DNA of 64,000 nucleotides, taken from the NCBI GenBank assembly GCA_934085595.1, contig CAKOHK010000001.1, positions 145,705 to 209,704 of the forward strand, read 5' to 3'. The notes beneath the pieces are model-generated. The model did not search any database, was not told the origin of the DNA, and saw only the letters and a list, made by a program, of their open reading frames with translations. The DNA is from an uncultured Bacilli bacterium (GTDB lineage: Bacteria > Bacillota_I > Bacilli_A > RF39 > UBA660). Of the stretch, positions 2,438-60,695 are shown piece by piece. A program made the position numbers and the translations under genes. The first letter of the stretch is position 1. Every line of letters starts with the position of its first letter.

Positions 2438-2713
2438 CTATTCTTCTATTACTTTTATATTACTATTATTATAACTAAGTCCATAATTATTTGCAACACT
2501 TAAAGCATTATCAAGACTAGATAATTCATTTATTTTCATCTGCATTCCAAGATTTAATTCTTCTTGAGTATTTATTTCTTTTAATAGTCTTTGTTTAGTA
2601 GCATTCCCCGATTCAATAGCGGCACTAAATATGCTTTCACATAGTATTGTTCCTACCATGAATAATACTATTAAAGCTGTAAACATCTTTTCATACTTTG
2701 ATTTTGTTTTCAT
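2438..2713 (-). CDS. ftsL: Cell division protein FtsL-like (small bitopic membrane protein)
   Basis: 91 aa with a single TM and a coiled-coil-like tail. Lies between rsmH and the PBP gene, as in dcw clusters. Confidence 0.5.
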   Translation of the reverse strand: MKTKSKYEKMFTALIVLFMVGTILCESIFSAAIESGNATKQRLLKEINTQEELNLGMQMKINELSSLDNALSVANNYGLSYNNSNIKVIEE

Positions 2714-3630: not shown

Positions 3631-4078
3631 ATAAATCTTCTGCTATTTCTTCAAGTGTATTTTCATTTTCTTTAATAAACTTGTCAAACTCTTCTTTATC
3701 CCATATTTCAAGTCGTTCATTAACGCCAATAATAACACATTCTTTATTAATATTGGCGTAATGAATGAGCGGTGAGGTAATACTAATTCGACCTTGTTTA
3801 TCGAATTCATTTAAAGAAGCTCCACCAACGAAAAACCTTTCAAAAGCTCTTACATTTTTCTTAGTGAATTTTAAAGTGTTTAAGTCTTTAACAAGTTTAT
3901 TCCATTCATCTATTGAATATACAAATAAACATTTATCAAGACCTTTAGTTATTATGTATTGATTTCCAAGTTCATTTCTAAACTTAGAAGGAATTATAAG
4001 TCTACCTTTATCATCAATATTATGATGATATTCACCCATTAACATAAAAACTCCCCACTTTCCTCCACTTTGTTTCAC
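3605..4078 (-). CDS. mraZ: Transcriptional regulator MraZ
   Basis: 157 aa with the duplicated DxxxR MraZ fold (KGRLIIPSKFR ... KQGRISI). First gene of the dcw cluster. Confidence 0.9.
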   Translation of the reverse strand: MKQSGGKWGVFMLMGEYHHNIDDKGRLIIPSKFRNELGNQYIITKGLDKCLFVYSIDEWNKLVKDLNTLKFTKKNVRAFERFFVGGASLNEFDKQGRISITSPLIHYANINKECVIIGVNERLEIWDKEEFDKFIKENENTLEEIAEDLFEGDNYEA

Positions 4079-4160
4079 TTCCTACCACTATATTACTATA
4101 ACAATATATAAAAGTAAATACTAAATCATAAAAAAACACTCACTTTTTGTAAAGTAAGTG

Positions 4161-4838
4161 TTAATTACGTACTCTTTTAAGAATATCTCCTAAGTCAACT
4201 TCTATATCTTTATCACTACTAAGCATACTATTTATATATTCACTTAATTTTATTAATTCTTCTCTATCAAGAGTATCCTTATTTTTTTCTTCAGTTCTAG
4301 TCATAAAAGGTGTCACATTAGTATAAGTTTCACTATTAACTTGTTCATTTAAAGAAGCACTTACCGGTTTAATAACATCTTCTTCTTGATGATACTCATC
4401 AGCCCCCTCAAGAACATCAATACGTCTTGCTTTATATGGCTCCACTTCCTCAAACGCAACCCTACTAAGAGGTCTAAATAAACTATTATCAGGTTGCTTA
4501 ATAACACTAACATCATCAACATATATATCATTATTAGAATTAGTATTTTTAAAGTGTCCACTTAATACTTTACTATCTATAAAATCATTAAGACTCTTCT
4601 TATCATTAAGAAGTTTATTACATTTAATAACTGTATAAAATGGTATAAGTCCTTTCATATAATCACTTATATCAAGTAAACTTCCTTTATTTTTCTTAAG
4701 TCCCCTATTCTTAAGTTCAAAATTAATTCTAAAATTAACTTCATCACTCTTATATAAATAGTAAACTATACTAACTATTAATGTAATTAAATATATAATC
4801 ATTATATTGCTTAATACTTCACTCATAACTGCCTCCAC
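4161..4838 (-). CDS. Hypothetical membrane-anchored protein
   Basis: 225 aa with an N-terminal TM helix. No recognisable motif. Confidence 0.4.
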   Translation of the reverse strand: MEAVMSEVLSNIMIIYLITLIVSIVYYLYKSDEVNFRINFELKNRGLKKNKGSLLDISDYMKGLIPFYTVIKCNKLLNDKKSLNDFIDSKVLSGHFKNTNSNNDIYVDDVSVIKQPDNSLFRPLSRVAFEEVEPYKARRIDVLEGADEYHQEEDVIKPVSASLNEQVNSETYTNVTPFMTRTEEKNKDTLDREELIKLSEYINSMLSSDKDIEVDLGDILKRVRN

Positions 4839-4891
4839 ATCAAAAATATATTATATATTATAGTATTCTTTAGTATAGACTTCAAGTATTA

Positions 4892-5902
4892 TTACATAGC
4901 AAGTGCTAATTTCTCAAGACTATCATTATATTTGCTTTTAAGTCCTAGTTCTAATATCTCTCCAAAATGGTCACATAAATTATCAAACTCACTAGTTGCA
5001 TAGCGATCTTGATTTGGACATATTTGATAATTAAATCCATAATCTACAAGAAATGGTCTAATTAATCTATCTTGCCATCTTTCTCCTTGATATAAAATTA
5101 CTCTTTGCCCACATACATTAACTTGCATCCATCCAAGTACTTCAGTAGCAAAACTTTCTCTTATATCAGCAGTAACGTCACATACTCTTTGATATTCTTC
5201 ATATTTAGCACTCATTCTATTAAACGAATCTATATCATACTCTTTAAGTCCATCCATAAATGTTCTAAATAAACTTCCATGATCTTGTCTTCCATAACCA
5301 CCAGCAGCTTTATCATCATATTGACTAACAAGCTCACCATTAGGAAGTATCCAACCTCTAAAACTACTATTTCCACTTTTAGATGTAATATCTTCCATAA
5401 ACGAATCTATTATTTGCTTTTTATATTGTTCTCTTCTTTCTCTTTCAAGTCTTTCCCTTTCAAGTCTTTCTCTTTCGAGTCTTTCCCTTACAAGTCTTTC
5501 TCTTTCAAGTCTTTCTTGATCAATATCATCGCTTGTATTTGTTTGACTTTCTTCATTCTTAGTTTCTTCAGTAGTCTTACTAGTTTTACATAAATAAAGT
5601 GCTATTCTTTCAAGCTTTCTTATAACAGAATCTGTATTTTCACCTTTTGCAAGTTCATTTCTACAATAAGTTGTTAATTGAAGTAAACTCACTCCAGTAT
5701 CACGGCTTAAAGTAAGCAATAAATCATTTAGTACTACAGCACTATTAATATTACTATAACCGTTATTTAAATTACCATATCTTACATATCCTCTATCATC
5801 ATTACTATAGATTATTTTATCATTATTATTATACTTTATATCGTTATACTTATTATTTTCAATTTTTATATTATAATATTTTTTATCATCATAATATGAC
5901 AT
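4892..5902 (-). CDS. Hypothetical protein with a central (RERLE)n repeat
   Basis: 336 aa. The central ERLERERLVRERLERERLERERLERERRE is encoded by a 15-nt tandem DNA repeat. The C-terminal half is Cys/Trp-containing and unrecognised. Confidence 0.4.
   Translation of the reverse strand: MSYYDDKKYYNIKIENNKYNDIKYNNNDKIIYSNDDRGYVRYGNLNNGYSNINSAVVLNDLLLTLSRDTGVSLLQLTTYCRNELAKGENTDSVIRKLERIALYLCKTSKTTEETKNEESQTNTSDDIDQERLERERLVRERLERERLERERLERERREQYKKQIIDSFMEDITSKSGNSSFRGWILPNGELVSQYDDKAAGGYGRQDHGSLFRTFMDGLKEYDIDSFNRMSAKYEEYQRVCDVTADIRESFATEVLGWMQVNVCGQRVILYQGERWQDRLIRPFLVDYGFNYQICPNQDRYATSEFDNLCDHFGEILELGLKSKYNDSLEKLALAM
5436..5520 (-). repeat. In-frame 15-nt tandem repeat (about 5 copies) encoding the RERLE repeats
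   Basis: Plus strand reads ctttcaagtctttcc / ctttcaagtctttct / ctttcgagtctttcc ... inside CDS 4892..5902. Confidence 0.7.
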
Positions 5903-5995
5903 AGATTTACCCCCTTAATAAAAGTATTTACATTATAGCATATTTCTTCCATTTTGTCAAATTATTGTTCGTACGCAAAACCTTAAATAATATAA

Positions 5996-6451
5996 TTATT
6001 CTATATCATCTTTTTCGTATTTTTTCTTTTCTTCCATCATAAACTCAGTAATTTTATTTCCAATCTCAACAGCTCCATCAGGATCAATATTAGATAAATA
6101 TACATTTTCCTTAACTGTATCTATTTCTATATCACTCCATATTAGATTCTTTCTAATCTTTAAATCATTATACATATCAGGAGTAATAGTTGTTAAAACA
6201 TAACCCCATAACAATCCTTTCTGCCCTATTAATATTCTTTTATTAGTTAAAGCCATAACACAAGAATTAATAATCATAAAAGAACTTTCATTCTTTTGAG
6301 CACAAAAAGCATATAATACCTCTTCCCCAGGATTTAAATGCTTTCTAATAACTTTCGCATGAGATGTAACACGAAAAGCTACTGTCCTTTTATATTTCTT
6401 CTTAAACAACTTTGCAAGTTTAACTACATCCATTTTCTCTTTTCCTTTCAT
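5996..6451 (-). CDS. Bacterial PH-domain (YdbS/YdbT-like, bPH_2) protein
   Basis: 151 aa. LTNKRILIGQKG followed by a beta-rich tail is typical of bPH_2. Overlaps the upstream gene by 4 nt. Confidence 0.45.
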   Translation of the reverse strand: MKGKEKMDVVKLAKLFKKKYKRTVAFRVTSHAKVIRKHLNPGEEVLYAFCAQKNESSFMIINSCVMALTNKRILIGQKGLLWGYVLTTITPDMYNDLKIRKNLIWSDIEIDTVKENVYLSNIDPDGAVEIGNKITEFMMEEKKKYEKDDIE

Positions 6452-7149
6452 TTTCTTAAAGCCCTAACATTAACCCTATCAAGCACATTATCCATATAAA
6501 ACTCACCACTAAATATATCACTATTATCTTCTCTAGGATTATAAAATCTATCAAAGATATCAGTCATTTCCCTATCAAACACACTAGAAAAATATTTATA
6601 ATTTTCTCTTATTTCTCTACTTTTCATACCCATTATTATATTAGTACTTGTTATAAATAATCTCTCTTTATCTTTAGACATATCTTTGCTTACTCTTCTA
6701 ACACTATCCATATCACATAATAATATATCTCCATCATTATAAAGTATATTAGAAGTATTAACATCCCAATAATTAAATCCATAAGATAATATTAATCTAT
6801 ATAATTTATTAAGTTTAATAACAATATCTATTCTTTTTTCAGGATCAAGATCTCCCATTAAAAGCAATCTTCTTAAATTATCATATTCCTTATAATACTT
6901 CATCACATACCCAGCAAATATATCTTCTCTATTATTCCTAACAACTATCTTTTTTAAAGGAACCACTGATGATGGTATATTAAGCCTATTTAACTCTTCA
7001 ATCAAATCTTCTCTATAAGCATACTCTTTAAAATCATTATATATTTTATAGCAAAACTCATCATCATGATAAATAACACTTTCATAATGTGGCACTCTTA
7101 TACTATCTAGTTTATATATATTTAAGTTTTTTATATTAACTTTTTCCAT
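6448..7149 (-). CDS. Protein-kinase-like fold protein, possibly a spore-coat-associated kinase-like protein
   Basis: 233 aa. WDVNTSNILY...LLCDMDSV resembles a kinase catalytic loop (D.N..N) and a DFG-like DMD. Confidence 0.35.
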   Translation of the reverse strand: MEKVNIKNLNIYKLDSIRVPHYESVIYHDDEFCYKIYNDFKEYAYREDLIEELNRLNIPSSVVPLKKIVVRNNREDIFAGYVMKYYKEYDNLRRLLLMGDLDPEKRIDIVIKLNKLYRLILSYGFNYWDVNTSNILYNDGDILLCDMDSVRRVSKDMSKDKERLFITSTNIIMGMKSREIRENYKYFSSVFDREMTDIFDRFYNPREDNSDIFSGEFYMDNVLDRVNVRALRK

Positions 7150-7248
7150 AACTATATAATATCATATATTTGTAAAGTATACAAAATTATTAAATAAAAT
7201 TAAATATTTTAATCATTATATTATATAATTACATTAGAGGTAATTTAT

Positions 7249-8181
7249 ATGAAAAAAATATTATTTGCATTTTTATCACTTTTATTAACTATTAGTATTA
7301 TCTATACTATATATTATTTTATTAGTAAAGATAATAATATTAATAAAAACGATAACAACATAACTATTAAAGAAGATGAATTAACTACTATTGGTTATAC
7401 TAAAGAAGAAGCTAAAGAAATAAGAAAACTATTTACTAAAGAAGAAATCGATACTTATTTACTTAAAACTAAATATAATGATTTATTATCATATAAAAAA
7501 TGTAAAGCATTTAATATAGAAAACTTAAATAGATATATTGCTTACAAAGAAAAAAATAATTATTCTATAGAAAACATAGTTAATTATGTAGAAATAAACT
7601 TAGATAAAGAGTTCTATACCGATATTAAAGAAATAGATTCTTCTTCTATTAATAAACTTACTTTAGTAAATAAATATAATAAACTTATTGATAATTATGA
7701 AGCATCTGATTTAATAACACTTGATAAAAATTATTCTTCAAATAAACAAAAGGTTAAATCTGAAATATTTCCATATTTAAAAAATATGTTTGATGATGCT
7801 AAGAAAGAAGGACTTTCTCTTAAAGTAATATCTGGTTATAGAACACATTCTCTTCAAAATACTTTATTTAATAATTCGAAAAAAAGAAATGGTTTAGATC
7901 ATGCATTAATGTATTCAGCTCGTCCAGGTCACTCAGAACATCAGTTAGGTTACGCTGTTGATATAAATACTGTACAAGAAAAGTTTAAAAATACAAAAGA
8001 ATACGCATTCTTAAAAGATAATGCATATAAATATGGTTTTATAGAAAGATATAAAGAAGGAAAAGAGTTTATAACTGGTTATGGATATGAACCATGGCAC
8101 TATAGATATGTTGGAATAGATGCTGCTAAAATCATATATGAAAATGATTTAACTCTAGAAGAATATTTATTACTTTATTAA
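7249..8181 (+). CDS. D-alanyl-D-alanine carboxypeptidase, VanY/M15 family, membrane anchored
   Basis: N-terminal TM. SGYRTHSLQ, SARPGHSEHQLGYAVDI and EPWHYRYVG are the VanY zinc-peptidase motifs. Confidence 0.8.
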   Translation: MKKILFAFLSLLLTISIIYTIYYFISKDNNINKNDNNITIKEDELTTIGYTKEEAKEIRKLFTKEEIDTYLLKTKYNDLLSYKKCKAFNIENLNRYIAYKEKNNYSIENIVNYVEINLDKEFYTDIKEIDSSSINKLTLVNKYNKLIDNYEASDLITLDKNYSSNKQKVKSEIFPYLKNMFDDAKKEGLSLKVISGYRTHSLQNTLFNNSKKRNGLDHALMYSARPGHSEHQLGYAVDINTVQEKFKNTKEYAFLKDNAYKYGFIERYKEGKEFITGYGYEPWHYRYVGIDAAKIIYENDLTLEEYLLLY

Positions 8182-8882
8182 AATATTTTCTTAACAAACA
8201 ATAAATAAAAGCATAAAACAACAAGAAAACTACAAATAGTAATTACACAAATAATTACTATTTTTTTACTATTATAAGATAGTTCCCTAACACTATCTTC
8301 TTCACTTTTAAATACACTCTTAGTTTTACTAACATGAATAACATATTTATTATTATTCATATTGTTATTAGAAGTAATATTTACTATAACATCATTATTC
8401 CCATCATTAAAATTCCCATTATTTTCAATCTTAACTGTACTTATAGAACTATCTGTTTCATAATTAAATCTTAAATACTCATTATCATAAGCATCTATAT
8501 AATAATCATGTATATCATTCTTAAAATCTATATCATATCCATCTATATTAAAATATTTAAATGTAGCTATATTCTCATCATCATGACTATAATTTTTATA
8601 TACTCTTATAGTATACTCTCCACTCTTACTACTATTAATTTTAAATATATTTTCTCCATTAATTATATTAAAAACTCCATATCCATTTACTTCTTCATCT
8701 TTATCTTTAGATACACTTATTAATACACTATCTTTATCACTAAAATAATTATATACTTTAGTATTTATATCAAAATAAGGTATAACACTTTCATTATTAA
8801 TTTTTATATCAGATAAAGCAAATACTCTATCAAAACAAAAAGAAAAGATACACAAAATAATTATATAAAGTTTCTTTTTCAT
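8178..8882 (-). CDS. Secreted, C-terminally membrane-anchored hypothetical protein (beta-sandwich-like)
   Basis: 234 aa with a signal peptide and a C-terminal TM. No clear family. Confidence 0.35.
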   Translation of the reverse strand: MKKKLYIIILCIFSFCFDRVFALSDIKINNESVIPYFDINTKVYNYFSDKDSVLISVSKDKDEEVNGYGVFNIINGENIFKINSSKSGEYTIRVYKNYSHDDENIATFKYFNIDGYDIDFKNDIHDYYIDAYDNEYLRFNYETDSSISTVKIENNGNFNDGNNDVIVNITSNNNMNNNKYVIHVSKTKSVFKSEEDSVRELSYNSKKIVIICVITICSFLVVLCFYLLFVKKIF

Positions 8883-8890
8883 AGCTTCTC

Positions 8891-10195
8891 CTATATACTT
8901 TTTATAACTATATTATGTACTCTTTTCTTTTTATTATTTATTATAAATGCATTTTTAAATCTATTTTCCATATCATCTATGTTCTTATTATAATATATAA
9001 TTCCAAGTATATCATTACATCTTATCTTTTTACCTAAGTTTTCATTTATGTATACTCCTACATTATAATCTATATTATCTTCTTTTTTACTTCTTCCAGC
9101 ACCTAAATCAAATACTAGTTTCGCTATTTCTTCTGCATCTATTTTATTTAAATATCCTTCTTTATCACTACTTACTATATATTTATTAGCTTTAATTTCA
9201 AATCCATTTAATGTTCCATGTTGTGCTTTTATCCATTCATAAAACTTAGCTCTTGCCATTCCACTTTTAATACTTAATATAACCATTTCTTTTGCTTTTT
9301 TAAATGTTTTATTAAGTGAAACACTTACCATAGTACTTGCTATATAAATACATAATTCATATAATCTTTTATCATATATTCCATCAAAGAACTTAATTGC
9401 TTCTAATACTTCAAGTTTATTTCCAACATATTTTCCAAGTGGATTTTCCATATCACTAAGAACGCATATTAATTTCTTATTATATCTTTTAGCAATATTT
9501 TTCATAAGTTTACTAAGTTTAATAGCATCTTTCCTATTCTTCATGAAAGCACCACTACCTACTTTTAAATCTATAACTATACTATCAGCGCCACAAGCAA
9601 TCTTCTTAGACATAATAGAACTTGCTATTAAAGGTATTGAATTAGTAGCTCCAATTTCATTTCTAAGTGCATATATTTTTTTATCAGCAATGCACATATC
9701 ATCACTTTGACTAATTACATAACATCCTACTTTAGATAAAATATTTTTACTCTCTTCATCACTTATATTAAGTTTATAACCGCGAATGCTCTCAAGCTTA
9801 TCAGCAGTTCCACCAGTAAGTCCAAGACCCCTACCACTCATTTTAGGAACAGCCACTCCAAGAGATGCTACAATCGGAGCAACTATTATTGATACTTTAT
9901 CTCCAACTCCACCAGTAGAATGTTTATCTACTATCTTTTTATCTAAAAAACTCATATCATTAACTTTACCACTTTTAATCATAACATCAGTTAAATAATA
10001 AGTTTCTTCTTCGCTAATACCATTATTATATATATTAAGAATAAACTTACTCATATCTTTATCATTTATTTTGCCTTTAACATACCCCATAACCATATAT
10101 TCTATTTCACTATAAGTAAGTTTTTCTTTACCAGTTTTATTAATAATCTTATCTTTCATATATTCCCTTTCTATTCTATAACTATTATATAACAA
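8891..10195 (-). CDS. pdp: Pyrimidine-nucleoside (thymidine) phosphorylase
   Basis: 434 aa. HSTGGVGDKVS and SGRGLGLTGGTADKLESI are the family's signature motifs. Confidence 0.9.
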   Translation of the reverse strand: MLYNSYRIEREYMKDKIINKTGKEKLTYSEIEYMVMGYVKGKINDKDMSKFILNIYNNGISEEETYYLTDVMIKSGKVNDMSFLDKKIVDKHSTGGVGDKVSIIVAPIVASLGVAVPKMSGRGLGLTGGTADKLESIRGYKLNISDEESKNILSKVGCYVISQSDDMCIADKKIYALRNEIGATNSIPLIASSIMSKKIACGADSIVIDLKVGSGAFMKNRKDAIKLSKLMKNIAKRYNKKLICVLSDMENPLGKYVGNKLEVLEAIKFFDGIYDKRLYELCIYIASTMVSVSLNKTFKKAKEMVILSIKSGMARAKFYEWIKAQHGTLNGFEIKANKYIVSSDKEGYLNKIDAEEIAKLVFDLGAGRSKKEDNIDYNVGVYINENLGKKIRCNDILGIIYYNKNIDDMENRFKNAFIINNKKKRVHNIVIKSI

Positions 10196-10231: not shown

Positions 10232-11266
10232 CTATTTATCAAGAACTAATCTCGTTAGTGAATCTGAATAATTAATTCCATTACTAAACTTACTAGCTTT
10301 ATTAAAAGTATCTACACTCATAGATGCAATCATATTATACTTAAGTTCTTTTAATATCTCATCATAATATTTAGTAGTAGAAACAAGTTGATCATTATAT
10401 TTTGCATTCTCTTCAAAAACTCTTGCATCTACACTATTATCATATTTTATTAATCTTTCTATACTATCATCTCCATATAAAAATCTAACAAACACATTTT
10501 CTAATCCAGTAGACCATAAAGAACCATTTTCATCTTTATATCTTGTATTTCTTTGAATATCATTAAGTATATCTACTATACGATCAAAATCATATGAAAC
10601 CCTATATTTCCTAATCATATCGCCTTCTACTTTTAAATAAGTATCATTACTACAATTACGAAATACAAGATACCTAATATAATCTTTTTTACTTATTTCA
10701 TCTATTACTTCATAACTTATTGCTTCCATAACTGATTCATATAAACTTTTAAGATTAGGAAGATTAGAAGCTACATTTCTTTGTCTATATAACTCTCTTA
10801 TTTTATATAATTCTTTAGCATTAGCATTATTATCTTCTCTTTCTTTTATTTCTTTATCTATTAAAGAAACTAAATCTTCTTCACCATTATATTTTAAAAG
10901 TCCACTAATCGCAAGAGCTCCCATATATTCATTACTAAAGCATATATCATCTAAAAAAAATTCTTCTTCATCTTCTTCATCAAAATCATAAGCAACTCCA
11001 AGTAACATCGCAGTAAGTTTATAAAGTAAAGAATGATAAACTAATTTATATTCTATTTTTCCATCTTTACCTTCTTCTATAGTACTATCATCAAACTTTA
11101 CATACTTAAAATCAAGATCTTTTTTATCAAGAACGCCTTTATCTAACTTACTAGAATATTCAAAGTTACCCTTTCTAATCTCTAAAAATAAATCTTTAAG
11201 TTTATCATAATCAATATCTACTTTATATTTATAAAGCATTCCATCTTTTTCTTCAATATATTTCAT
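10232..11266 (-). CDS. Tandem-array paralog 1 (344 aa), unknown function
   Basis: Starts MKYIEEKDGMLYKYKVDIDYDKLKDL and ends LTRLVLDK, with GGAGG 7 nt upstream. Shares an N-domain, a DLVSLIDKEIKERE hinge and a C-domain (ELYxQRxVAS..., INIFR-like, FPxxxYNM, YYxEILxEL) with 11292..16902. Confidence 0.6.
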   Translation of the reverse strand: MKYIEEKDGMLYKYKVDIDYDKLKDLFLEIRKGNFEYSSKLDKGVLDKKDLDFKYVKFDDSTIEEGKDGKIEYKLVYHSLLYKLTAMLLGVAYDFDEEDEEEFFLDDICFSNEYMGALAISGLLKYNGEEDLVSLIDKEIKEREDNNANAKELYKIRELYRQRNVASNLPNLKSLYESVMEAISYEVIDEISKKDYIRYLVFRNCSNDTYLKVEGDMIRKYRVSYDFDRIVDILNDIQRNTRYKDENGSLWSTGLENVFVRFLYGDDSIERLIKYDNSVDARVFEENAKYNDQLVSTTKYYDEILKELKYNMIASMSVDTFNKASKFSNGINYSDSLTRLVLDK

Positions 11267-30516: not shown

Positions 30517-30593
<77 letters not shown>

Positions 30594-54743: not shown

Positions 54744-55106
54744 TTATACATTTTTAGGAACTAATTCTTTTTTAATTTCATTTTTATTATTTCTAAGTTT
54801 CCACCAAAAACATCTAATAAAATCAAAATCATATAAAACTTTTAATACCTCTATTGGAAGAAAATCTAAGTTATAACTACAACTATTAGATGGTATAATT
54901 ACTTCTCCAATTACTTTAAAATCACCATAACTTAATGATTCAGAAGTGACTATAATATCTAAGTTTCTTTTATTAAACTCTTTTTGTAAAAAATAACCAA
55001 ATTGATTAAGTTCTGATATTGTAATATATCCTTCATTAAAAATATGCTTCTTTGATTCAATAAGTGATATTGCTACATATCCGTTTCCTAAAAAATAAGT
55101 ATTCAT
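54744..55106 (-). CDS. Hypothetical protein
   Basis: 120 aa. Confidence 0.35.
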   Translation of the reverse strand: MNTYFLGNGYVAISLIESKKHIFNEGYITISELNQFGYFLQKEFNKRNLDIIVTSESLSYGDFKVIGEVIIPSNSCSYNLDFLPIEVLKVLYDFDFIRCFWWKLRNNKNEIKKELVPKNV

Positions 55107-55328
55107 AAAACCTCCTTCATAAAATATATATTAGCTAACATTTATTATTTATTATTTTTTTACATAAGCACCATTACTGATTACTTCTCTGCCCAAGAAA
55201 TCCAGTACTTAACATACAATTAGAACATTCGCACAAATAATGCTTGGTTCGATGTACCTTAAAGGTCTTCTAACAATATCATATCATTTTTTTACAGATT
55301 TACAACAAATTATCACTTATAAAAATTT

Positions 55329-55390
55329 AAAAAGCCTAAGGCTTCTAAAGTTTCATAGGCACTTTTCAATATATAATATTGCATTATTTA
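55329..55390. repeat. Intergenic repeat A, copy 1 (hairpin-containing, about 60-80 nt)
   Basis: aaaagcctaaggcttctaaagtttcataggcacttttcaatatataatatt is about 80% identical to 57836..57900. aagcc-taa-ggctt hairpin with a T-run on the minus strand. Confidence 0.55.
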
Positions 55391-55503
55391 AAACAAAAAA
55401 GCAAGTCAGACGCATCTAACTTGCTCAGATGGGATCCGAAGATACACCATCGCCATTCACATTTATAATATACCATAATTGCAAAAATTATGCAATAATT
55501 CGA

Positions 55504-56490
55504 TCAACTTTTTATAAATTTTCGTAAAGCTGATAATTTATTCTTTGTATCAGAATATATAATCTTATTATAAATACTAATGGAAATCTTATTTCTAAAC
55601 TCCTCAATAATTTTTTCATAATCATTTACAAATTTATTAATTTCAGTTTTAGTAATTCCATACTTTTTTAATAAAACTGAAATAATAAGAACATAATCAG
55701 TAATTGTATTAAAATCTATTCCAGTACAACATATTTCATTTTCTAGATATTTAGATAATTTAGTATCAATTTGCCCGTCTTTAAATCTCACATCAAAAAC
55801 TACATCATTATGTGCAATTGAATTTCTTAATGATTTAATTAAATACATAATCTTTTCAGGAAATTTAGCATTAGTATCAAATGCAATATTTATATTCATT
55901 TCTTTATCAATTTTATTTCTAACTTTAAATTCTAAACTTTTAATTAAATCCGCAAACGTTCCTAATGTAATTATTTCAAATATACCCCAAATTGGAACAT
56001 ATCTATCTTTTGAATAAAAATGACTAACAATTTTATTTTCATTATTATAACTTCTAGATAAAGAAGAATAAATACTATTTTGTACTGATAATCTTTGCTT
56101 CATTTTCTTTTTATATTCTTCGCTAGTATTACTATTTCTATAATCAGTCATACCATTTTCATAAATAACATTAAATTCATCAGTTTTATACTCTTCAACT
56201 AACATTTGAAGTACAATATTTTTTGAAATCGTTTCTATTTGCATTATTTGTGGATATAATAAACTTTTTAACTTAGAGTCAAAATCAACTATTGAAACTA
56301 TTTCATCAAAACTAGATAAATTTATTCTATTTTGTGTATTATTAATGTATCTATAACCCTTATAACCATGATAATAACCTATATTTCTTAAACTCTTTTT
56401 ATCTTTAGTACCTCCAATAGAAATATTATGCTTTTTTCTTAAATATATCATTAAAGCATTTGTTGTTCTAACTTTCATTTTTATATTCAC
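55504..56490 (-). CDS. Abi_2 (AbiD/AbiF-like) abortive-infection family protein
   Basis: 328 aa. N-terminal LRNIGYYHGYKGYRYI matches the Abi_2 NIGYYRLSGY signature. Confidence 0.6.
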   Translation of the reverse strand: MNIKMKVRTTNALMIYLRKKHNISIGGTKDKKSLRNIGYYHGYKGYRYINNTQNRINLSSFDEIVSIVDFDSKLKSLLYPQIMQIETISKNIVLQMLVEEYKTDEFNVIYENGMTDYRNSNTSEEYKKKMKQRLSVQNSIYSSLSRSYNNENKIVSHFYSKDRYVPIWGIFEIITLGTFADLIKSLEFKVRNKIDKEMNINIAFDTNAKFPEKIMYLIKSLRNSIAHNDVVFDVRFKDGQIDTKLSKYLENEICCTGIDFNTITDYVLIISVLLKKYGITKTEINKFVNDYEKIIEEFRNKISISIYNKIIYSDTKNKLSALRKFIKS

Positions 56491-56567
56491 CTCATTTCTA
56501 CATATAGAAAAAGAGCAAAATAAATCTTATTCCTAATAAGTCACTACTTGCCCTTATTTTTTCTTAT

Positions 56568-57434
56568 TTAAATATATTTAATATTATTTCTGATATTTAT
56601 GTTTGGTATTCTTCTAACAAGAGTTTTCTGTAATTCTGTTTTTTCTCTACAAAAAGCTAAAGAATGCTGATTTTTTTCATCTTCAAAATCTTTATCTGTT
56701 AATCCATAATCATCTAATAATAACTCATGAAACGTTTTTGTAATTTCTATTTCTTTTTTATCATCATCAGTTAATTCTTTTTTTGCATCTAACTGATTAA
56801 ACTTTTCTTCATATGCTCTTATTTTTCGAGCATGTTCAAAATCCCATTGTGGAGCAGGTCCACCATAAGTATTAGGTCTAGAATGATATGGATTTCTCTC
56901 ATCGTATAATCTATCTAATTCACTTATTACTCGCATCAATTCTGCTTCCCTATGTTCTTTACTATCGATAGTTTGAAATAAAGAAATATTACCTATTTTC
57001 ATTGTTTTATAACCACTCGGTATTTTTGAACTAAAGCCCATAGGACCTTCATGATAATCAAAGTCAAATAATTTAAAGCTTCTTTCTTCGCCTAATGAAG
57101 CATATACTTCTAATCCTTCAATATCATCATTATCATCAGATATTTCAAGCTCTGATTCATTTTGTTTAAATATGTTTAATGCCCTATTATAAATATTATA
57201 CATTGCTATTCTTTTATATACTTCTAATTCTGATATAGCAGCTCTATCATTATCACTAATGTACTCTCTGATAACTGAAAATTCCAAATCTATTAAAGAC
57301 TTTAAATAGTTAATCATTGAAACATTTAGTATTCCCTTATAACCTTTCAAAAGTTCAATTAATTCTTCCCTAGTGTTTATTTTATTCCAATTCTCATTCA
57401 TTTGCATTATTTCCATTTTTAAACCTCCCTTCAT
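56568..57434 (-). CDS. Hypothetical protein (288 aa), possibly co-transcribed with the Abi gene
   Basis: Acidic, cytoplasmic, no motif. Confidence 0.4.
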   Translation of the reverse strand: MKGGLKMEIMQMNENWNKINTREELIELLKGYKGILNVSMINYLKSLIDLEFSVIREYISDNDRAAISELEVYKRIAMYNIYNRALNIFKQNESELEISDDNDDIEGLEVYASLGEERSFKLFDFDYHEGPMGFSSKIPSGYKTMKIGNISLFQTIDSKEHREAELMRVISELDRLYDERNPYHSRPNTYGGPAPQWDFEHARKIRAYEEKFNQLDAKKELTDDDKKEIEITKTFHELLLDDYGLTDKDFEDEKNQHSLAFCREKTELQKTLVRRIPNINIRNNIKYI

Positions 57435-57710
57435 CTAATCATTTATTATAGCATAATTTTTATAATTTGAAACAAAAATTGTTTTTTTGAGTATTATCTT
57501 TCAAAAGTTAGGTTTTAAATAGTTTTTCTTGTTTCAGATAATTTAATCTTATTATTTAAATTTTAAATAAACATCTCGTTAGAATAATCAAAAGATATAA
57601 AGATAATATTATTAATTATAATTCTATGTGGTTCTAGATAAGTAAGATTGGTCTTATCAATACCCCTCAAATCACCATTAATAACAATTGGCTTAACTCT
57701 ACAAAACCAT

Positions 57711-57900
57711 AAAAAGTTCAAGTAGATTTTCCTATGGTGTCCTAAGGAAAGAAGTAAAACAACTTTTAAGCAACATTTAATAGTTAGTAATAAAATAAAC
57801 TAATACAAATATATCATAAAAATTTATAAAATGAAAAAGACCTAGGGCTTCAAAAGTTTTATAGGCACATTTTAACAAATAATATACACTATTTATTGAT
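57711..57900. repeat. Intergenic repeat B copy 1 (57711-57815) followed immediately by repeat A copy 2 (57836-57900)
   Basis: B reads aaaagttcaagtag...tatggtgtcctaaggaaagaagtaaaacaacttttaagc...aatagttagtaataaa..aactaatacaaatat and is about 85-90% identical to 59463..59575. Confidence 0.55.
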
Positions 57901-58111
57901 AATTTATAGTTAAGTATCAATTTTATTGTTAGTTTTATCACTAGTTTTATCTTTATCGAATAATGATTTTTTTAATTCTTTCTAATTCATAAGTTTTTCC
58001 ATATCCATTTGGTCATATAAATATTTATAACATAATTCACTTCTAACCACATAAAAAGAGCGTAGTATTCCTTATTATATTAATAAGTCTTTACTAGCCC
58101 TTATTTTTAAT

Positions 58112-59311
58112 TTAATTATTTTTTAATACTAATTGTTCAGTACTCGTTTTTTTCTTCATATTTTCAATTGTAACTTCTGATGCATAGCTTGCCGTTTTTA
58201 ATAATTCATCATAAACAAAAGCAATTTGTTCAGGAGTAGCAGGGATTTTATCTTCATAAGTTTCTCCAGCTTTTCCATTAGTAATATTCAATCTTATATC
58301 AATTTTATCAACATTATCTCCACAATAATAAATTGCTACAACTTCACCCTTATCTGATTCAAAATTACCACTAGTTGAAAAATAATGTAAAACCTGCAAA
58401 TAATTTTCTTCTCCCAAATTATAAGATAATTGAAATGAAAATCCATCTGGGCTTCTATAATAGGTTGTTTTATTTCCTGTACTAATATCTGTTATTTCTA
58501 GCCTACAACAACCTTGTCTATATTTACCATGTTCAGAGTTATATGAGTTAGCATTAATTTTAACATTCTTTAAATAGTTACTAATCTCATCAATTTCAAT
58601 ATCGTCATTAAGAAAAGGATTAACAGCTTTATCAAAATCTAGAACAGCCTTTCTAAATATTTGTCCCAATTTTGTTTTATTATCTCTCTCAACTGAAGAA
58701 TTATAATTGTTTTTATTTTCTTTATCATCTTGCATCCAGTCATATGCGGAAATATAAGGATTTACCTTTTTTAAAATTTCAGAAGTAATCTTTGATATTA
58801 ATTCATCATACTTTTCAACTTCAGTTTCAGGTAAATTATTTTTTCTCAAGAAATAATCTTTCATTTCAGTTAAAAAGATTAATAGTCCTTCTTTTGAATC
58901 AATATGATAGGTTTTTAAATATTTATCATCAATATTTTTCCTTCTTTTGAAATTTCTTTTAGCATTTTCACATTTTGATAAATACTCATCAATACCAAGA
59001 TGTTCTTCCACATATTTTTGAATATCTTTTTCATATTTCTCATCTGTAGCCCAATCAATTGGATTCCAATCCTTACATCCTCCGTCTACTCTAATATCAT
59101 AAGGATTACCAGGATATTTTTGATAAATAATATTTGCAACTTCTAGTGGGATTCTACCATTAACTATTGTATAATAACTACCACCAAAACATATTGCGAG
59201 ATTATTCCAATAATGTACTTCTTCTATTGTACCATATCTTCCTTCAGCTGTTGACAAAGGATTATTTATACCAACAGCTTTCATAACCTCATTAAATTCT
59301 AAACGATTCAT
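58112..59311 (-). CDS. Hypothetical protein (399 aa)
   Basis: Single gene between repeat units. No motif. Confidence 0.4.
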   Translation of the reverse strand: MNRLEFNEVMKAVGINNPLSTAEGRYGTIEEVHYWNNLAICFGGSYYTIVNGRIPLEVANIIYQKYPGNPYDIRVDGGCKDWNPIDWATDEKYEKDIQKYVEEHLGIDEYLSKCENAKRNFKRRKNIDDKYLKTYHIDSKEGLLIFLTEMKDYFLRKNNLPETEVEKYDELISKITSEILKKVNPYISAYDWMQDDKENKNNYNSSVERDNKTKLGQIFRKAVLDFDKAVNPFLNDDIEIDEISNYLKNVKINANSYNSEHGKYRQGCCRLEITDISTGNKTTYYRSPDGFSFQLSYNLGEENYLQVLHYFSTSGNFESDKGEVVAIYYCGDNVDKIDIRLNITNGKAGETYEDKIPATPEQIAFVYDELLKTASYASEVTIENMKKKTSTEQLVLKNN

Positions 59312-59462
59312 TATAAACCTCCCTTGTTAATTGTTTATTGTAACACACACAATTTAAGATGTAAACATTTGCTACTCTAGATATTTTGATACAAGCATCA
59401 AAATTATCAGTGATGATTTTATTACATAAAAACGTACCTATATTTCAAACTGAAAATATATT

Positions 59463-59600
59463 AAAAGTTCGAATAGTTCAAACATATTTACTTATGGTGC
59501 CCTAAGGGAAGAAGTAGAACAACTTCTAGGGCAAAAGAAATAGTTAGTAATAACTATTAACTAATATAAGTATAACACAAATTTTCAAAAAAACATTAAA
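59463..59600. repeat. Intergenic repeat B copy 2 plus a truncated A-like start
   Basis: aaaagttcgaatag...tatggtgccctaagggaagaagtagaacaacttctagggc...aatagttagtaataac..aactaatataagtat. Here GCCCTA...GAAG...CTTC...TAGGGC forms a nested stem. Confidence 0.55.
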
Positions 59601-59657
59601 TAATGTTCATATTTAAGTAAAATATGTTATAATATCAATCACTAAGGAGGTCTTTTT

Positions 59658-60485
59658 ATGAATGCTTATGTTGAAAGTGGAATTTCTATTTTGAATGACA
59701 CTACTAAAGATTTGAAAAATTTAAATGAACTTGGAATATATTTGGCTAAACAAACTGATATTGATGCTTTAAAATCATTAAAACTTTTAATTTTAGCCTC
59801 TGAAAATTCATTATTAGATAAAGAGTTTGATATTAATAGTATTAAGTCTTATACCGAAACAATTATGCGTAATACGTATAAAAGAAATGAAACAGTAATT
59901 GGTAACTTATCTATGAATCCACAAAATATTGCTCTGGAATTAATGGACTATATTTTACATAATTATAAAGTTGATTTAACTGTTCAACCCTATGATAGCG
60001 GTTATACTGTATTCGATTTTTGGGTTCGTTCACTTGTTAGAATCGAAGATGACCAAGACATATTTTATAAAAGATATGATATGATTGATAAAAAGTTAGA
60101 AATTGCTTCGTACATGATTAGAAGTGAATTATTGAATGTTAATCAAATTGATTATTTACTAATTGCATTTGATAGATGTATACAGCGTCAACATTCTTAT
60201 ACAAAAGAACAATTGTTAAGAATGCAAGAAATGCTTAATAGTGTGAAATTAAGAGAACAATTAGAACTTAATGTTGCAAATTTAATTACTCAAAATAAAA
60301 TACAACTTAATTGTTCTAGAGATGAACTTATTAAAGGTTTATCAACGACTGGGACTCAAGTAGATCAACATTCTGGGAAAGAAGATTTTTGGGGTGAAAT
60401 ATCGAATTATCAAATGTTAAATGACCAATGTGTATATATGTTACAAACTATACCTACATTAGTTAAGAAAAAAATAATAAAATAA
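59658..60485 (+). CDS. Hypothetical protein (275 aa)
   Basis: Strong RBS aaggagg. No motif. Confidence 0.4.
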   Translation: MNAYVESGISILNDTTKDLKNLNELGIYLAKQTDIDALKSLKLLILASENSLLDKEFDINSIKSYTETIMRNTYKRNETVIGNLSMNPQNIALELMDYILHNYKVDLTVQPYDSGYTVFDFWVRSLVRIEDDQDIFYKRYDMIDKKLEIASYMIRSELLNVNQIDYLLIAFDRCIQRQHSYTKEQLLRMQEMLNSVKLREQLELNVANLITQNKIQLNCSRDELIKGLSTTGTQVDQHSGKEDFWGEISNYQMLNDQCVYMLQTIPTLVKKKIIK

Positions 60486-60618
60486 TACTATTTACACACG
60501 CTAATTGATTATGTCGATTTGCAAGTGTGTTTCTAAATTATTAAAATAAAAACTAGTTTCAATTTAATTTGAGAGTAGTTTTTATATTATCTCGAAAAGT
60601 TCGAGTTTCCTATCAATC

Positions 60619-60695
60619 TGGTGCTGAAAACAGGAATCGAACCCGCAACCTACTGATTACGATTCAGTTGCTCTACCTAATTGAGCTATTTCAGC
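60619..60695 (-). tRNA. tRNA-Thr (anticodon CGT)
   Basis: GCTGAAATAGCTCAATTAGGTAGAGCAACTGAATCGTAATCAGTAGGTTGCGGGTTCGATTCCTGTTTTCAGCACCA. Anticodon loop is auCGUaa. Confidence 0.8.

Follow-up and report, generated by a model that had tools for sequence, protein, structure and literature searches.

The island behind a tRNA-Thr gene in the 64,000-nt window (the whole stretch of DNA analysed, from an uncultured Bacilli bacterium) contains short intergenic repeats between its cassettes, which raises the question of what these repeats are and how the cassettes came to lie beside them. Repeats A and B together probably make up a conserved module at the right end of integrative mobilizable elements (IMEs) and of recombinase-less derivatives, all of which insert at the base that follows the CCA of tRNA or tmRNA genes. 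On this reading the repeats bracket units as recombination sites, and integrative elements have accreted in tandem at a tRNA gene. The observations behind it are the unit boundaries, the conservation of unit ends across species, tandem arrays, one unit that is cleanly present or absent depending on the strain, and full-length relatives that encode a large serine recombinase and Mob_Pre. Accretion is a known route to bacterial gene islands, and the present island is a variant of that route, with precedents in CIME/IME accretion and Tn4451 (PMC5704250), tandem serine-recombinase islands at ssrA (PMC3146451) and tycheposons (10.1101/2020.12.28.424599).

Comparison of the window with itself by blastn recovered two copies of each repeat, A at 55317-55395 and 57824-57900 (81% over 75 nt between 55317-55390 and 57824-57895, E 2e-12) and B at 57711-57831 and 59472-59592 (77% over 121 nt between 57712-57831 and 59472-59592, E 1e-21), with no copy of either beyond these pairs in the 64 kb. 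The two families proposed in the sequence-only reading are thus real, and B was also recovered independently by a repeat search (family D1). A third family, C, occurs at 56492-56567 (C1, a spacer that precedes the AbiD gene) and 58037-58105 (C2, a conserved spacer separating the 399-aa gene from a lost OLD-family gene), the copies being ~70% identical; C2 can fold into either of two hairpins, but not both at once, each of which includes CTTATT. Genes of the island lie on the minus strand, as do all features described here except the 275-aa ORF of unit 1, which is listed as plus.

Repeat A, which lies upstream of the promoter-like motif of the right end, is a weak terminator module. The short hairpin and T-run ascribed to it earlier are present, the hairpin being G+C and the pair visible only on the minus strand: A1 carries AGAAGCCTTAGGCTTTTT at 55329-55346, flagged at 55346-55330 by the terminator scan, and A2, in a spacer just upstream of the B1 promoter-like motif, carries the weak terminator-like hairpin GAAGCCCTAGGTCTTTTT (57834-57852). 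Termination of the preceding cassette by A is plausible on this strand; folding is weak in both copies (z -1.5 and -0.85). The truncated A-like start suspected after 59575 turned out to belong to B2, as its promoter-like portion; nothing but AT-rich background aligns there.

In B, a 31-nt core at the minus-strand 3' end, AAGTTGTTCTACTTCTTCCCTTAGGGCACCA, is the functional unit. In B2, the right-end module of unit 1 (59495-59592, delimited by similarity breakpoints and a strain polymorphism boundary), an extended -10-like motif TGTTATACT (59569-59577) is followed by the hairpin P1 (AATAGTTA-TTAC-TAACTATT, 59539-59558), the 5' arm GCCCTAG (59526-59532) and the core (59495-59525). B1, the right-end module of unit 2 (57735-57816), has the corresponding motif TGATATATT (57808-57816), P1 (57781-57802) and core AAGTTGTTTTACTTCTTTCCTTAGGACACCA (57735-57765). 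The nested inverted repeat described earlier in B2 was found as GCCCTAG/GAAG...CTTC/TTAGGGC and is degraded in B1. P1 and the 5' arm lie outside a typical 50-bp attP, and attachment-site function alone does not account for their strong conservation.

Confinement of the repeats to a single locus, envisaged earlier as the mark of local duplication, was not what we found, since they are conserved in dozens of genomes. The core pattern occurs in 39 stretches of species-representative genomes, 38 of them gut Bacilli/Tenericutes/Mollicutes MAGs, and is nearly invariant, also when copies are retrieved via the P1 hairpin. Across 73 distinct junctions the sequence is constant to the left of CACCA| and heterogeneous to its right from the first base; B2 loses its similarity to L027, L054, L058 and L051 at 59494/59495. 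It is 95-98% identical to copies in L030/L035 and B1 87-90% identical to L001 (8496/8568-8691), whereas B1 and B2 share only 77%. In many units the A spacer, the extended -10-like motif and P1 precede the core. Neither the core nor the left end shows significant dyad symmetry.

The integration target is the tRNA-Thr(CGT) gene at 60619-60695 (Rfam, 68.8 bits; ARAGORN; sequence), which ends in ...TTTTCAGCACCA, and the island begins one base past its CCA. The left end of unit 1 ('alpha', GATTGATAGGAAACTCGAACTTTTCGAG, 60591-60618) consists of a 12-13-nt spacer and a CTCGAA/TTCGAG hairpin. The same sequence stands directly after the CCA at seven different tRNA/tmRNA genes in other genomes (targets being tRNA-Thr(cgt), Thr(ggt), Leu, Arg, Lys and Ala genes and tmRNA genes) and also opens recombinase-bearing elements; it is absent after tRNA-Thr in the sister strains L091 and L093. 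The beta-like left end of unit 2, TAAGTAAATATGTTTGAACTATTCGAAC (59467-59494), has a spacer and a GTTTGAA/TTCGAAC hairpin seen in the fold, and follows tRNA-Thr directly in L091/L093 and a 48-nt tRNA' repeat in L087. That of unit 3, TAGGAAAATCTACTTGAACTTTTTATGG (57707-57734), shares with other left ends a TTGAAC motif, here at +14. Of 57 distinct right flanks, 42 have a TCGAAC-like motif that begins between +11 and +16 (3.9 expected from shuffles). The general left end of a unit is ~12 nt followed by a YTCGAAC hairpin.

Three tandem recombinase-less units follow the tRNA gene in minus-strand order and carry phage-defence genes. Unit 1 (60618-59495) comprises B2 and the 275-aa ORF (59658-60485, plus strand), which matched no family in Pfam, PADLOC or NCBIfam and has homologues at the same position in L027 and L051; the L027 homologue sits between Mob_Pre and the right end. 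A terminator-like hairpin with a U-run at 60543-60583 (fold z -3.05 for 60500-60618) has the same sequence as the terminator after the Mob_Pre gene in full elements, as blastn matches to L009 (5846-5901), L027 (6280-), L012, L025 and L028 show. Window positions 60546-59494 are 87% identical to L027 6280-7330, with similarity ending exactly at the core end, and unit 1 is, by this comparison, a derivative without the 3.5-kb segment for the 88-aa protein, recombinase and Mob.

Unit 2 (59494-57735) contains the 399-aa cargo gene (58112-59311; no family match), remnants of an OLD-family gene, A2 and B1. Between its left end and the 399-aa gene lies a palindrome, ATAATTTTGATGCTTGTATCAAAATATCTAG (59377-59407), conserved in L020, L025, L028 and L048. 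Relatives pair the 399-aa gene with an OLD-family ATPase/TOPRIM nuclease gene (AAA_21 + OLD-like TOPRIM), of which remnants persist at 57903-58033: 58033-57980 corresponds to L009 7259-7312 and 57964-57903 to L001 8269-8330, the L001 gene spanning 7295-8470, and ~0.9 kb is deleted from the window copy. Unit 3 (57734 to about 55300) holds the remnant of a small 81/88-aa-family gene (57513-57652, 83% identity to L009 8750-8887), a family that comes after the left end in related units, followed by the 288-aa cargo gene (56568-57434; no family match), the AbiD/Abi_2 abortive-infection gene (55504-56490; Pfam Abi_2 3.6e-31, PADLOC AbiD 1.9e-28) and A1. The AbiD region is 92% identical at the DNA level to L009 9294-10544; the longest AbiD ORF at this locus encodes 328 aa and annotated relatives 324 aa. 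A strong intrinsic AbiD terminator (55395-55426; terminator scan) has a 12-bp stem and a T-run. The right end of unit 3 is degraded; a possible and uncertain trace, TGATATGAT then TTGTTAGAAGACCTTTAAGGTACATCGAACC at 55246-55286, is a by-eye likeness only, with no nhmmer hit to the core model and no strain polymorphism. Comparable arrays occur in L015, L033, L034, L037, L046 and L048, where co-oriented cores lie 0.5-3.4 kb apart, and some cores stand directly after a stop codon, yielding single-gene units.

Strains differ in unit 1 with single-nucleotide boundaries. L091 and L093 precisely lack it, tRNA-Thr...GCACCA being joined directly to the left end of unit 2, and the missing segment is 59495/59501-60612/60618, its ends being ambiguous by 6 nt. 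Every strain recovered carries units 2 and 3. For unit 1, the difference could reflect a deletion instead of an insertion; it is precise either way.

Relatives have the core as the right end of their integrative mobilizable elements, which are located immediately after the CCA of tRNA or tmRNA genes and encode an 88-aa protein, a large serine recombinase (Resolvase + Recombinase + Zn_ribbon_recom) and a Mob_Pre relaxase (1.8e-23). In seven of them (L012, L017, L026, L027, L044, L058 and L063) the alpha left end leads into these three genes, and the elements run on to a type-1 B core within the stretch fetched. Near the island, no recombinase or relaxase gene was found within the window, so activity there would be in trans or past.

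These features suggest a mechanism. Like the tRNA, the core ends in GCACCA, and the left end has the look of a tRNA trailer; each tRNA|left-end junction would thus still be target-like and new units would stack in front. Judging from gene content, the serine recombinase would catalyse integration between attP (core joined to left end) and attB (tRNA end plus trailer), with crossover presumably in or next to the CCA, and short units may have been moved in trans. The -10-like motif could act as an outward promoter and may drive the cargo of the next unit. Counting against this explanation are the missing recombinase and relaxase genes near the island, the lack of significant dyad symmetry in core and left end, the fixation of units 2 and 3, the degraded right end of unit 3 and the strong conservation of P1 and the 5' arm; in addition, serine-recombinase IMEs described so far insert mostly inside genes (PMC5704250).

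Among other explanations, B could be mainly an RNA, a promoter with a ~70-nt structured leader or small RNA mimicking a tRNA, built of P1 and an acceptor-like helix (GCCCUAG/UUAGGGC) that ends in ACCA. Such an RNA would control the defence cassette downstream of it or work in trans, for instance through base pairing between CUUCCCUU and the Shine-Dalgarno sequence AAGGGAGG of the 399-aa and 288-aa genes. We consider this unlikely. An extended -10-like motif does lie 6-8 nt upstream of P1 in every type-1 copy, the layout of promoter, ~70 nt, ...CACCA and trailer copies that of a tRNA gene, and in L001 the 12-mer found in the B2 promoter-like motif recurs ~7 nt ahead of the tRNA-Thr gene. Folding is better than in shuffles for B2 (z -3.19) but not for B1 (z -0.24); across 58 B copies paired cells reach 92%, and 5' arm C/U variation and P1 changes are mostly G.U-compatible on the gene strand, but RNAalifold gives only -2.4 kcal/mol and the variants CCATTAGGG, CTTATGG and CCCTCAGGG are unconstrained and uncompensated. 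Hairpins with compensatory variants and U-runs follow the core; these, however, belong to the next unit or the tRNA trailer. Without a match to any Rfam family even at E<=10, and with covariation no higher than shuffles (159/500), the shared regulatory leader or small RNA suggested earlier finds no support. About ten copies keep the 31-nt core alone, immediately preceded by unrelated sequence or a stop codon, and an RNA role leaves the abrupt breakpoints and strain polymorphism unexplained. The junctions could otherwise be made by the Mob_Pre relaxase ('plasmid recombination enzyme') at an oriT/RSA-like site inside B instead of by the serine recombinase, which appears improbable. Full elements encode Mob_Pre, B would in a circular form come to lie ahead of the 88-aa/recombinase/mob operon, the expected place for an oriT, and TGTGTTATACTT in B2 (59568-59579) is identical over 12 nt to the pMV158 oriT nick region TGTG/TTATACTT, which overlaps an extended -10 promoter (PMC5863519). 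This 12-mer is nevertheless at chance level in the AT-rich window, is not conserved despite near-identical Mob proteins (TATGATATAAT, TATGTTATACT and others), lies ~75 nt upstream of the actual junction and is missing from type-2 units that have identical junctions.

Local tandem duplication, or modules shuffled purely by homologous recombination without site-specific mobility, is more improbable still. The B repeats are direct and 1.76 kb apart, and an identical 31-nt core could support RecA-dependent exchange that also breaks at core edges. Duplication is contradicted because each copy of A and B resembles copies from other species more closely than the second copy in the window, and the segments between the repeats are unrelated; moreover, recombinase-bearing elements at seven different tRNA/tmRNA genes have these ends as well. 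The edges of unit 1 share only 6 nt (GCACCA), too short for homologous recombination, which may still add to mosaicism. Least probable of all is an integron-like array, with B an attC/attI-type site, an IntI-type tyrosine recombinase and promoterless ORFs as cassettes. Co-oriented ~100-nt repeats between one- or two-gene cassettes, cores directly after stop codons and a possible imperfect bulged hairpin in B2 recall it, but no Phage_integrase domain occurs among the ORFs scanned from 50 to 64 kb, RYYYAAC/GTTRRRY core sites (R''/R') are lacking, and the junction is CACCA| as against G|TTRRRY. The B core is conserved in sequence across species, attC sites are not, and related autonomous elements have a serine recombinase and relaxase, with arrays starting at tRNA genes; an integron was rejected on these grounds. 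Of the earlier suggestion of recombination sites in a cassette array, the tandem units behind a tRNA gene and their exact strain boundaries hold, and the integron does not.

Accretion at a tRNA gene, the favoured explanation, has a close counterpart in streptococcal ICE/IME and CIME accretion (ICESt1/ICESt3, IME_Sag2603_tRNAlys), where integration is repeatedly site-specific at one locus, at tRNA or other 3' gene ends, and decayed CIMEs without integrase and transfer genes keep both ends and adaptive cargo (PMC5704250). In streptococci integration relies on tyrosine integrases, and the direct repeats duplicate the 3' end of the target gene (PMC5704250), whereas the window units have an element-borne 31-nt core with only GCACCA in common with the tRNA, and a large serine recombinase is the only recombinase of full-length relatives. 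The mobilizable transposons Tn4451/Tn4453 (TnpX/TndX, TnpZ) have the same backbone gene content, with one large serine recombinase and a MobV/Mob_Pre relaxase (PMC5704250), but Tn4451 has low target specificity and a 2-bp GA crossover, while the elements described here sit precisely after tRNA/tmRNA CCA; the best plasmid-borne relatives are only ~32% identical. Dehalococcoides ssrA islands (DsiB) are likewise serine-recombinase islands in tandem at a tmRNA 3' end, some without an integration module and read as CIME-like (PMC3146451); the present elements, by contrast, occupy at least seven tRNA/tmRNA genes, have a repeat that does not derive from the target, and carry Mob_Pre in their backbone and no DsiA/ParB/Mom. 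Integron gene cassettes (attC arrays) resemble the units in outcome, being small, co-oriented and often single-gene with a conserved recombination site between them, but the window units have no IntI, attI, attC structure or core sites, are anchored at a tRNA gene and in some cases bear their own promoter-like motifs and terminators. The pMV158 oriT/Pmob1 nick region, which matches the B2 12-mer and doubles as promoter of the MobV relaxase gene (PMC5863519), is a match at chance level that other copies do not conserve, and the comparison showed no IR1/IR3 equivalents at the right spacing. Prochlorococcus tycheposons also place cargo elements beside tRNA genes, with older ones pushed inward and degraded remnants (10.1101/2020.12.28.424599), but they belong to a different phylum, mostly use tyrosine recombinases, are flanked by partial tRNA copies and in many cases carry replication modules.

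The observation of conserved intergenic repeats around the island genes is real. Within-window blastn aligned repeat A at 55317-55390 with 57824-57895 (81% over 75 nt, E 2e-12) and repeat B at 57712-57831 with 59472-59592 (77% over 121 nt, E 1e-21), and recovered no further copy of either family in the 64 kb; the truncated third A copy proposed after 59575 by the sequence-only reading is not real. The window has a G+C content of 26.7%. Apart from a divergent 275-aa ORF on the plus strand (59658-60485), which adjoins B2 and carries no recognised domain, the genes of the region all lie on the minus strand: a 399-aa gene (58112-59311) and a 288-aa gene (56568-57434), both without a family match, an Abi_2/AbiD gene (55504-56490; Pfam 3.6e-31, PADLOC 1.9e-28) and tRNA-Thr(CGT) (60619-60695). 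A third repeat family, C, occurs on the minus strand at 56492-56567 and 58037-58105, directly 3' of the stop codons of the 288-aa and 399-aa genes, respectively, giving the gene-strand order B2, 399-aa gene, C2, A2, B1, 288-aa gene, C1, AbiD, A1. As a conserved spacer, repeat C directly precedes the second member of each gene pair (the OLD-family gene or AbiD), and recurs at 7209-7305 in L001 and 9290-9383 in L009 (the L prefix denotes comparison loci from other genomes or metagenomes). Its sequence permits two hairpins, each excluding the other, that have CTTATT in common (AATAAG...CTTATT and CTTATTA...TAATAAG), and window and L001 differ by one compensatory change, U-A to C-G, with four distinct copies seen in all; C is possibly a small regulatory switch.

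Aligned copies of B share a composite architecture on the gene strand, comprising an extended -10-like motif (TGTTATACT or TGATATAAT, with TGATATATT as a further form), a hairpin termed P1 (AATAGTTA-TTAC-TAACTATT), a variable arm (GYYCTAG) and an almost invariant 31-nt core, AAGTTGTTCTACTTCTTCCCTTAGGGCACCA. The window cores lie at 59495-59525 and 57735-57765, both on the minus strand and thus in direct orientation. Scanning one genome per species for the core pattern returned 39 stretches, 38 of them in gut MAGs whose titles name uncultured Bacilli, Tenericutes, Mollicutes or Clostridia and, in one case, Muribaculaceae; the single cyanobacterial match was set aside as a chance match, its surrounding sequence being unrelated. 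The core was also nearly invariant in a metagenome scan keyed on P1, although it had not been used for retrieval. Two types of copy were distinguished, type 1 with promoter-like motif, P1, arm and core, and type 2 with the core alone behind unrelated sequence, in several cases directly abutted by a stop codon. A core HMM further detected more divergent, co-oriented cores spaced 0.5-3.4 kb apart in L015, L033, L034, L037, L046 and L048, and these series are arrays like that of the window.

Conservation extends beyond this locus, as a BLAST comparison with relatives established: human-gut metagenomes commonly encode homologues of the 399-aa protein, on contigs that also carry A, B and C. B1 matches the L001 copy at 87-90% identity and B2 those of L030 and L035 at 95-98%, whereas B1 and B2 share only 77%; because each is closer to copies from other genomes than to its neighbour, a local tandem duplication unique to this locus does not account for the repeats. 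Repeat A, a spacer ~75 nt long, combines a short G+C hairpin with a U-run and is located directly upstream of the promoter-like motif of the right end in the window, L001, L009 and L035; its hairpin is weak, and it probably shields the element end against transcription from the cargo. In type-1 ends, the extended -10-like motif faces outward and, as a prediction, could drive the genes of the next unit (399 aa; 288 aa plus AbiD). A promoter scan of the region was uninformative, with 41 sites against 48 expected in 27% G+C DNA.

The position at which copies cease to resemble one another bears on the nature of B. Near-identical upstream sequences diverge abruptly directly after CACCA when B2 is compared with L027, L051, L054, L058 and L075, and likewise between L009 and L012. 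Across 73 distinct junctions, the sequence to the left of the break is constant and that to the right is heterogeneous from the first base, with all boundaries reading ...GGGCACCA|N. Judged from these alignments, such a pattern is the signature of an element end rather than of a leader RNA.

Comparison of contigs from other samples carrying an identical ferredoxin gene next to the tRNA resolved three states of the locus, in which up to three proposed tandem mobile units follow tRNA-Thr. The window arrangement recurs in L085 (metagenome ERZ27287352), L086, L088 and L089. In L091 (metagenome ERZ28575672) and L093, tRNA-Thr ending ...TTTTCAGCACCA is joined straight to TAAGTAAATATGTTTGAAC, the left end of unit 2, so that the junction without unit 1 reads ...TTTTCAGCACCA|TAAGTAAATATG; unit 1 is missing with single-nucleotide precision, and the two junctions share only GCACCA (6-nt ambiguity). 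Homologous recombination requires more than six shared nucleotides, so unit 1 represents a discrete unit that was site-specifically inserted or excised. In L087, a 7.1-kb tyrosine-integrase island occupies the same tRNA and is again followed by unit 2. Alongside the integrase gene, this island (2677-9835, at the locus of window 59501-60618) carries genes for an HTH_17 excisionase-like product, an AAA_25 protein, a nuclease with Mrr_cat/NA-iREase1 domains and a regulator of the HTH_3 type. It is bordered by a perfect repeat (48 nt) of the tRNA 3' half and represents an island of the classical kind, in competition for this site. No presence/absence polymorphism of units 2 and 3 was found among the strains recovered, and a look-up of the 120-aa flank protein returned only strains with the same units 2-3.

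The left ends of the three units map to 60591-60618, 59467-59494 and 57707-57734, all on the minus strand, the first starting directly behind tRNA-Thr (60619-60695). Unit 1 (60618-59495) is 87% identical to L027 over a stretch that runs from the terminator behind the L027 Mob gene across the 275-aa ORF and ends with the final base of the core, and lacks the 3.5-kb segment with the 88-aa, recombinase and Mob genes. Unit 2 (59494-57735) comprises a beta-like left end, a conserved palindrome, the 399-aa gene, C2, OLD remnants, A2 and B1. The palindrome, ATAATTTTGATGCTTGTATCAAAATATCTAG, lies at 59377-59407 (minus) between left end and 399-aa gene, is kept as (CTAG)GTATTTTGATGCTTGCATCAAAATACCTAG in L020, L025, L028 and L048, and is operator-like. 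Unit 3 (57734 to ~55300) contains a left end, a remnant of an 81/88-aa-family gene, the 288-aa gene, C1, AbiD, a strong terminator and A1. No right end could be recognised for it, the degenerate candidate at 55246-55286 being a resemblance only.

In relatives, the 399-aa homologue is followed by a gene of ~390 aa with AAA_21/AAA_15 and OLD-like TOPRIM domains (L001 7295-8470, L009 7259-8428), of which the window retains two remnants only, at 57980-58033 and 57903-57964 (minus). The two genes may constitute an undescribed defence pair, the 399-aa member having no PADLOC match, and the window gene is probably orphaned, its partner reduced to these remnants. Exact-protein look-ups with the 399-aa and pseudouridine-synthase proteins returned no match. 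Other cargo was seen in the comparison contigs. A type-I toxin-antitoxin-like cassette lies at ~8700-9000 in L001, within 1.5 kb without a called gene, and also downstream of cores in L015, L035, L046 and L050; on one strand, a promoter-like TGTTATTCT is conserved and accompanied by a structured region, and the other strand bears GGGAGGTGA ahead of a hydrophobic peptide of 33 aa, MLVGKKDFLICSLVIIILLLIALLFVILK. Single-gene units, with a stop codon abutting the core, occur in L034 (3376-4305), L037 (637-1521) and L048 (5485-6378), and their cargo includes an R2K-clade ATP-grasp domain protein (Pfam 3.5e-7) and a 294-297-aa family without a recognised domain.

These units target the 3' ends of tRNA and tmRNA genes. 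In the window, the sequence of tRNA-Thr closes with ...CAGCACCA, and directly behind it stands GATTGATAGGAAACTCGAACTTTTCGAG..., the alpha left-end type, which also follows many cores. Among fetched loci, alpha was located directly after the CCA of seven genes: tRNA-Thr(cgt), Thr(ggt), Leu(caa), Arg(cct), Lys(ctt), Ala(tgc) and tmRNA. It is absent behind the other tRNA of the window (Arg, 30517-30593), where the trailer is ordinary. Behind the last core of an array, a short unique trailer and a plain terminator were found (L017, L043, L045, L051, L054, L060 and L076), and this trailer looks like a native tRNA trailer.

Seven loci (L012, L017, L026, L027, L044, L058 and L063) carry full-length relatives in the order alpha, 88-aa gene, recombinase, Mob_Pre, cargo and type-1 B core. 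The recombinase (3192-5033 in L027) has 613 aa with Resolvase, Recombinase and Zn_ribbon_recom domains (2.1e-33, 2.7e-17 and 2.5e-4 in L027), that is, a large serine recombinase (LSR), and overlaps a 413-aa Mob_Pre relaxase gene (1.8e-23 in L027); the island of the window has neither of the two. By their gene content, these relatives are integrative mobilizable elements (IMEs) with alpha as left end and the core as right end. In a second IME subfamily (L029, L035, L058 and L071), the left end differs (...CGAGTTTAAGTAATAAATGCTAACTAG...) and the product of the first gene starts MTIETKE; in L058 it begins at 9740, in tandem right behind a full recombinase-bearing element (5128-9739). At least two further right-end types also end in GCACCA, reading ...CTTAACTATCGCACCA| in L009 and ...GCGTATTTATGGCACCA| in L035, with A and an extended -10-like motif upstream, which suggests that several related element families use the same target logic. 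The L009 type occurs at 2240-2282 and 10600-10640 (...GGTTTCGGACTATCTTAACTATCGCACCA|) and the L035 type at ~680-720 (minus strand), each preceded by repeat A and the -10-like TGGTATAAT. A strong promoter-like site, TTGACA-17-TATAAT, follows the alpha left end and a terminator in L048 (~3140-3180) and in other loci; its window counterpart at 60489-60517 (minus) is weakened to TCGACA...TAAATA and reads into the 275-aa ORF from its 3' end, in antisense.

These data allow the functions initially suggested for the repeats to be weighed. Recombination sites bracketing cassettes proved right in substance, given the conserved ends and the precise presence or absence of unit 1. An integron would give a similar array of cargo genes between repeated sites. 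Integrons are marked by an IntI tyrosine recombinase and attI beside the array, and by attC sites with R'', L'', L' and R' elements and G|TTRRRY boundaries. Here, no Phage_integrase match was obtained in the ORFs scanned at 50-64 kb, attC-type RYYYAAC/GTTRRRY pairs are absent and boundaries read ...GGGCACCA|N, so the integron reading is wrong. A shared RNA leader or small RNA would be in keeping with the pairing potential of P1 and of P2, the helix of the 5' arm with the core, and B2 folds better than its shuffles; B1 does not. This reading is unsupported: at the gathering threshold, only the two tRNAs of the window match Rfam, and relaxation to E<=10 over 55000-60000 yielded nothing relevant, only tRNAs and noise. 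With P1 and P2 specified explicitly on 58 distinct copies, the covariation score was no higher than in shuffles, at 0.092 against 0.090 (159 of 500 shuffles as high or higher), and RNAalifold on 29 type-1 copies found essentially no consensus (-2.4 kcal/mol).

Other identities for B fared no better. A tRNA-like cloverleaf received no ARAGORN call, the GTTC...CCA distance being 26 nt, not 24; by-eye comparison with dif sequences showed no resemblance to a XerC/D site; and a phage att site is not supported, as no core copy occurs in the viral contig collection searched. An origin of transfer was considered for the B2 12-mer TGTGTTATACTT, identical at 12/12 positions to the pMV158 oriT nick region (PMC5863519), and appears unlikely: the match is at chance level, and the 12-mer varies among elements with near-identical Mob N-termini. 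Coding explanations were discarded, since the 15-codon ORF of B2 is not kept in B1 and, for translational read-through past stop codons, core frames differ between L034 and L037.

Ends, arrays, target and polymorphism are direct observations, as are the recombinase and relaxase genes of the full-length relatives, and a mechanism can be proposed from them. The LSR would recombine attP (core plus left end) with attB (tRNA end plus trailer), with crossover in or next to CCA, and the circular joint expected for unit 1 would read ...CCCTTAGGGCACCA|GATTGATAGGAAACTCGAAC. The left end would copy the layout of a tRNA trailer, keeping the tRNA|left-end junction usable as a target; newcomers would consequently insert in front of older units, unit 1 before unit 2. 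Units without a recombinase would be either moved in trans or fossils. Of 57 distinct right flanks, 42 have a TCGAAC-like motif whose first base lies +11 to +16 behind CACCA (3.9 in shuffles), and there is a loose resemblance between the core (GTTCTACTTC...GGGCACCA) and the 3' half of a tRNA (GTTCGATTCC...GGCACCA). Dyad symmetry between core and left end, however, did not exceed that of shuffles.

As a tentative synthesis, in which we place rather low confidence, we propose an undescribed serine-recombinase IME family in gut Bacilli (Mollicutes-like MAGs), with insertion exactly behind the CCA of many different tRNA and tmRNA genes. The right end would mimic a tRNA gene (extended -10 promoter, ~70 nt, ...GGGCACCA) and the left end a trailer, the target being regenerated at each insertion; miniature derivatives, some of a single gene, would stack as integron-like defence and toxin-antitoxin arrays mobilised in trans, and the right-end mimic would perhaps be transcribed as a functional tRNA-like RNA. 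Attachment-site function alone does not account for the strong conservation of P1. If the recombination model outlined above holds, recombinase-less units with standard ends are stacked behind tRNA genes by the recombinase of a related element, which explains how small-genome gut Bacilli, represented by metagenome assemblies only, build and exchange phage-defence islands. The LSR would then have as its natural target a universally conserved sequence, the 3' end of tRNA genes, at several loci, which matters for recombinase specificity and for the development of tools. For annotation, an intergenic repeat conserved beside defence genes can be the end of an element and not a regulatory RNA, and the 31-nt core offers a simple sequence handle for the discovery of cargo, which so far includes AbiD, the 399-aa protein together with its OLD-family nuclease partner, a peptide resembling type-I toxins and several uncharacterised proteins.

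A limited search of the literature found no description of this element family. The closest concept is the accretion of ICEs and IMEs with cis-mobilizable elements (CIMEs) at one att site, and the gene content of the autonomous relatives, LSR plus Mob/Pre relaxase, is that of Tn4451-type elements (PMC5704250). Tn4451-like elements are marked by very short (2-bp) crossover identity and att sites of imperfect dyad symmetry; at the polymorphic junctions described here, 5-6 nt (CACCA/GCACCA) are shared. Tandem serine-recombinase islands are known at the tmRNA gene of Dehalococcoides (PMC3146451), and tycheposons are tandem tRNA-linked cargo elements (10.1101/2020.12.28.424599). The present elements differ from known systems in host lineage, in a repeated boundary sequence that is element-borne and not a copy of the tRNA end, in insertion exactly after the CCA of several different tRNA and tmRNA genes, and in the miniature single-gene derivatives that give their arrays an integron-like look.
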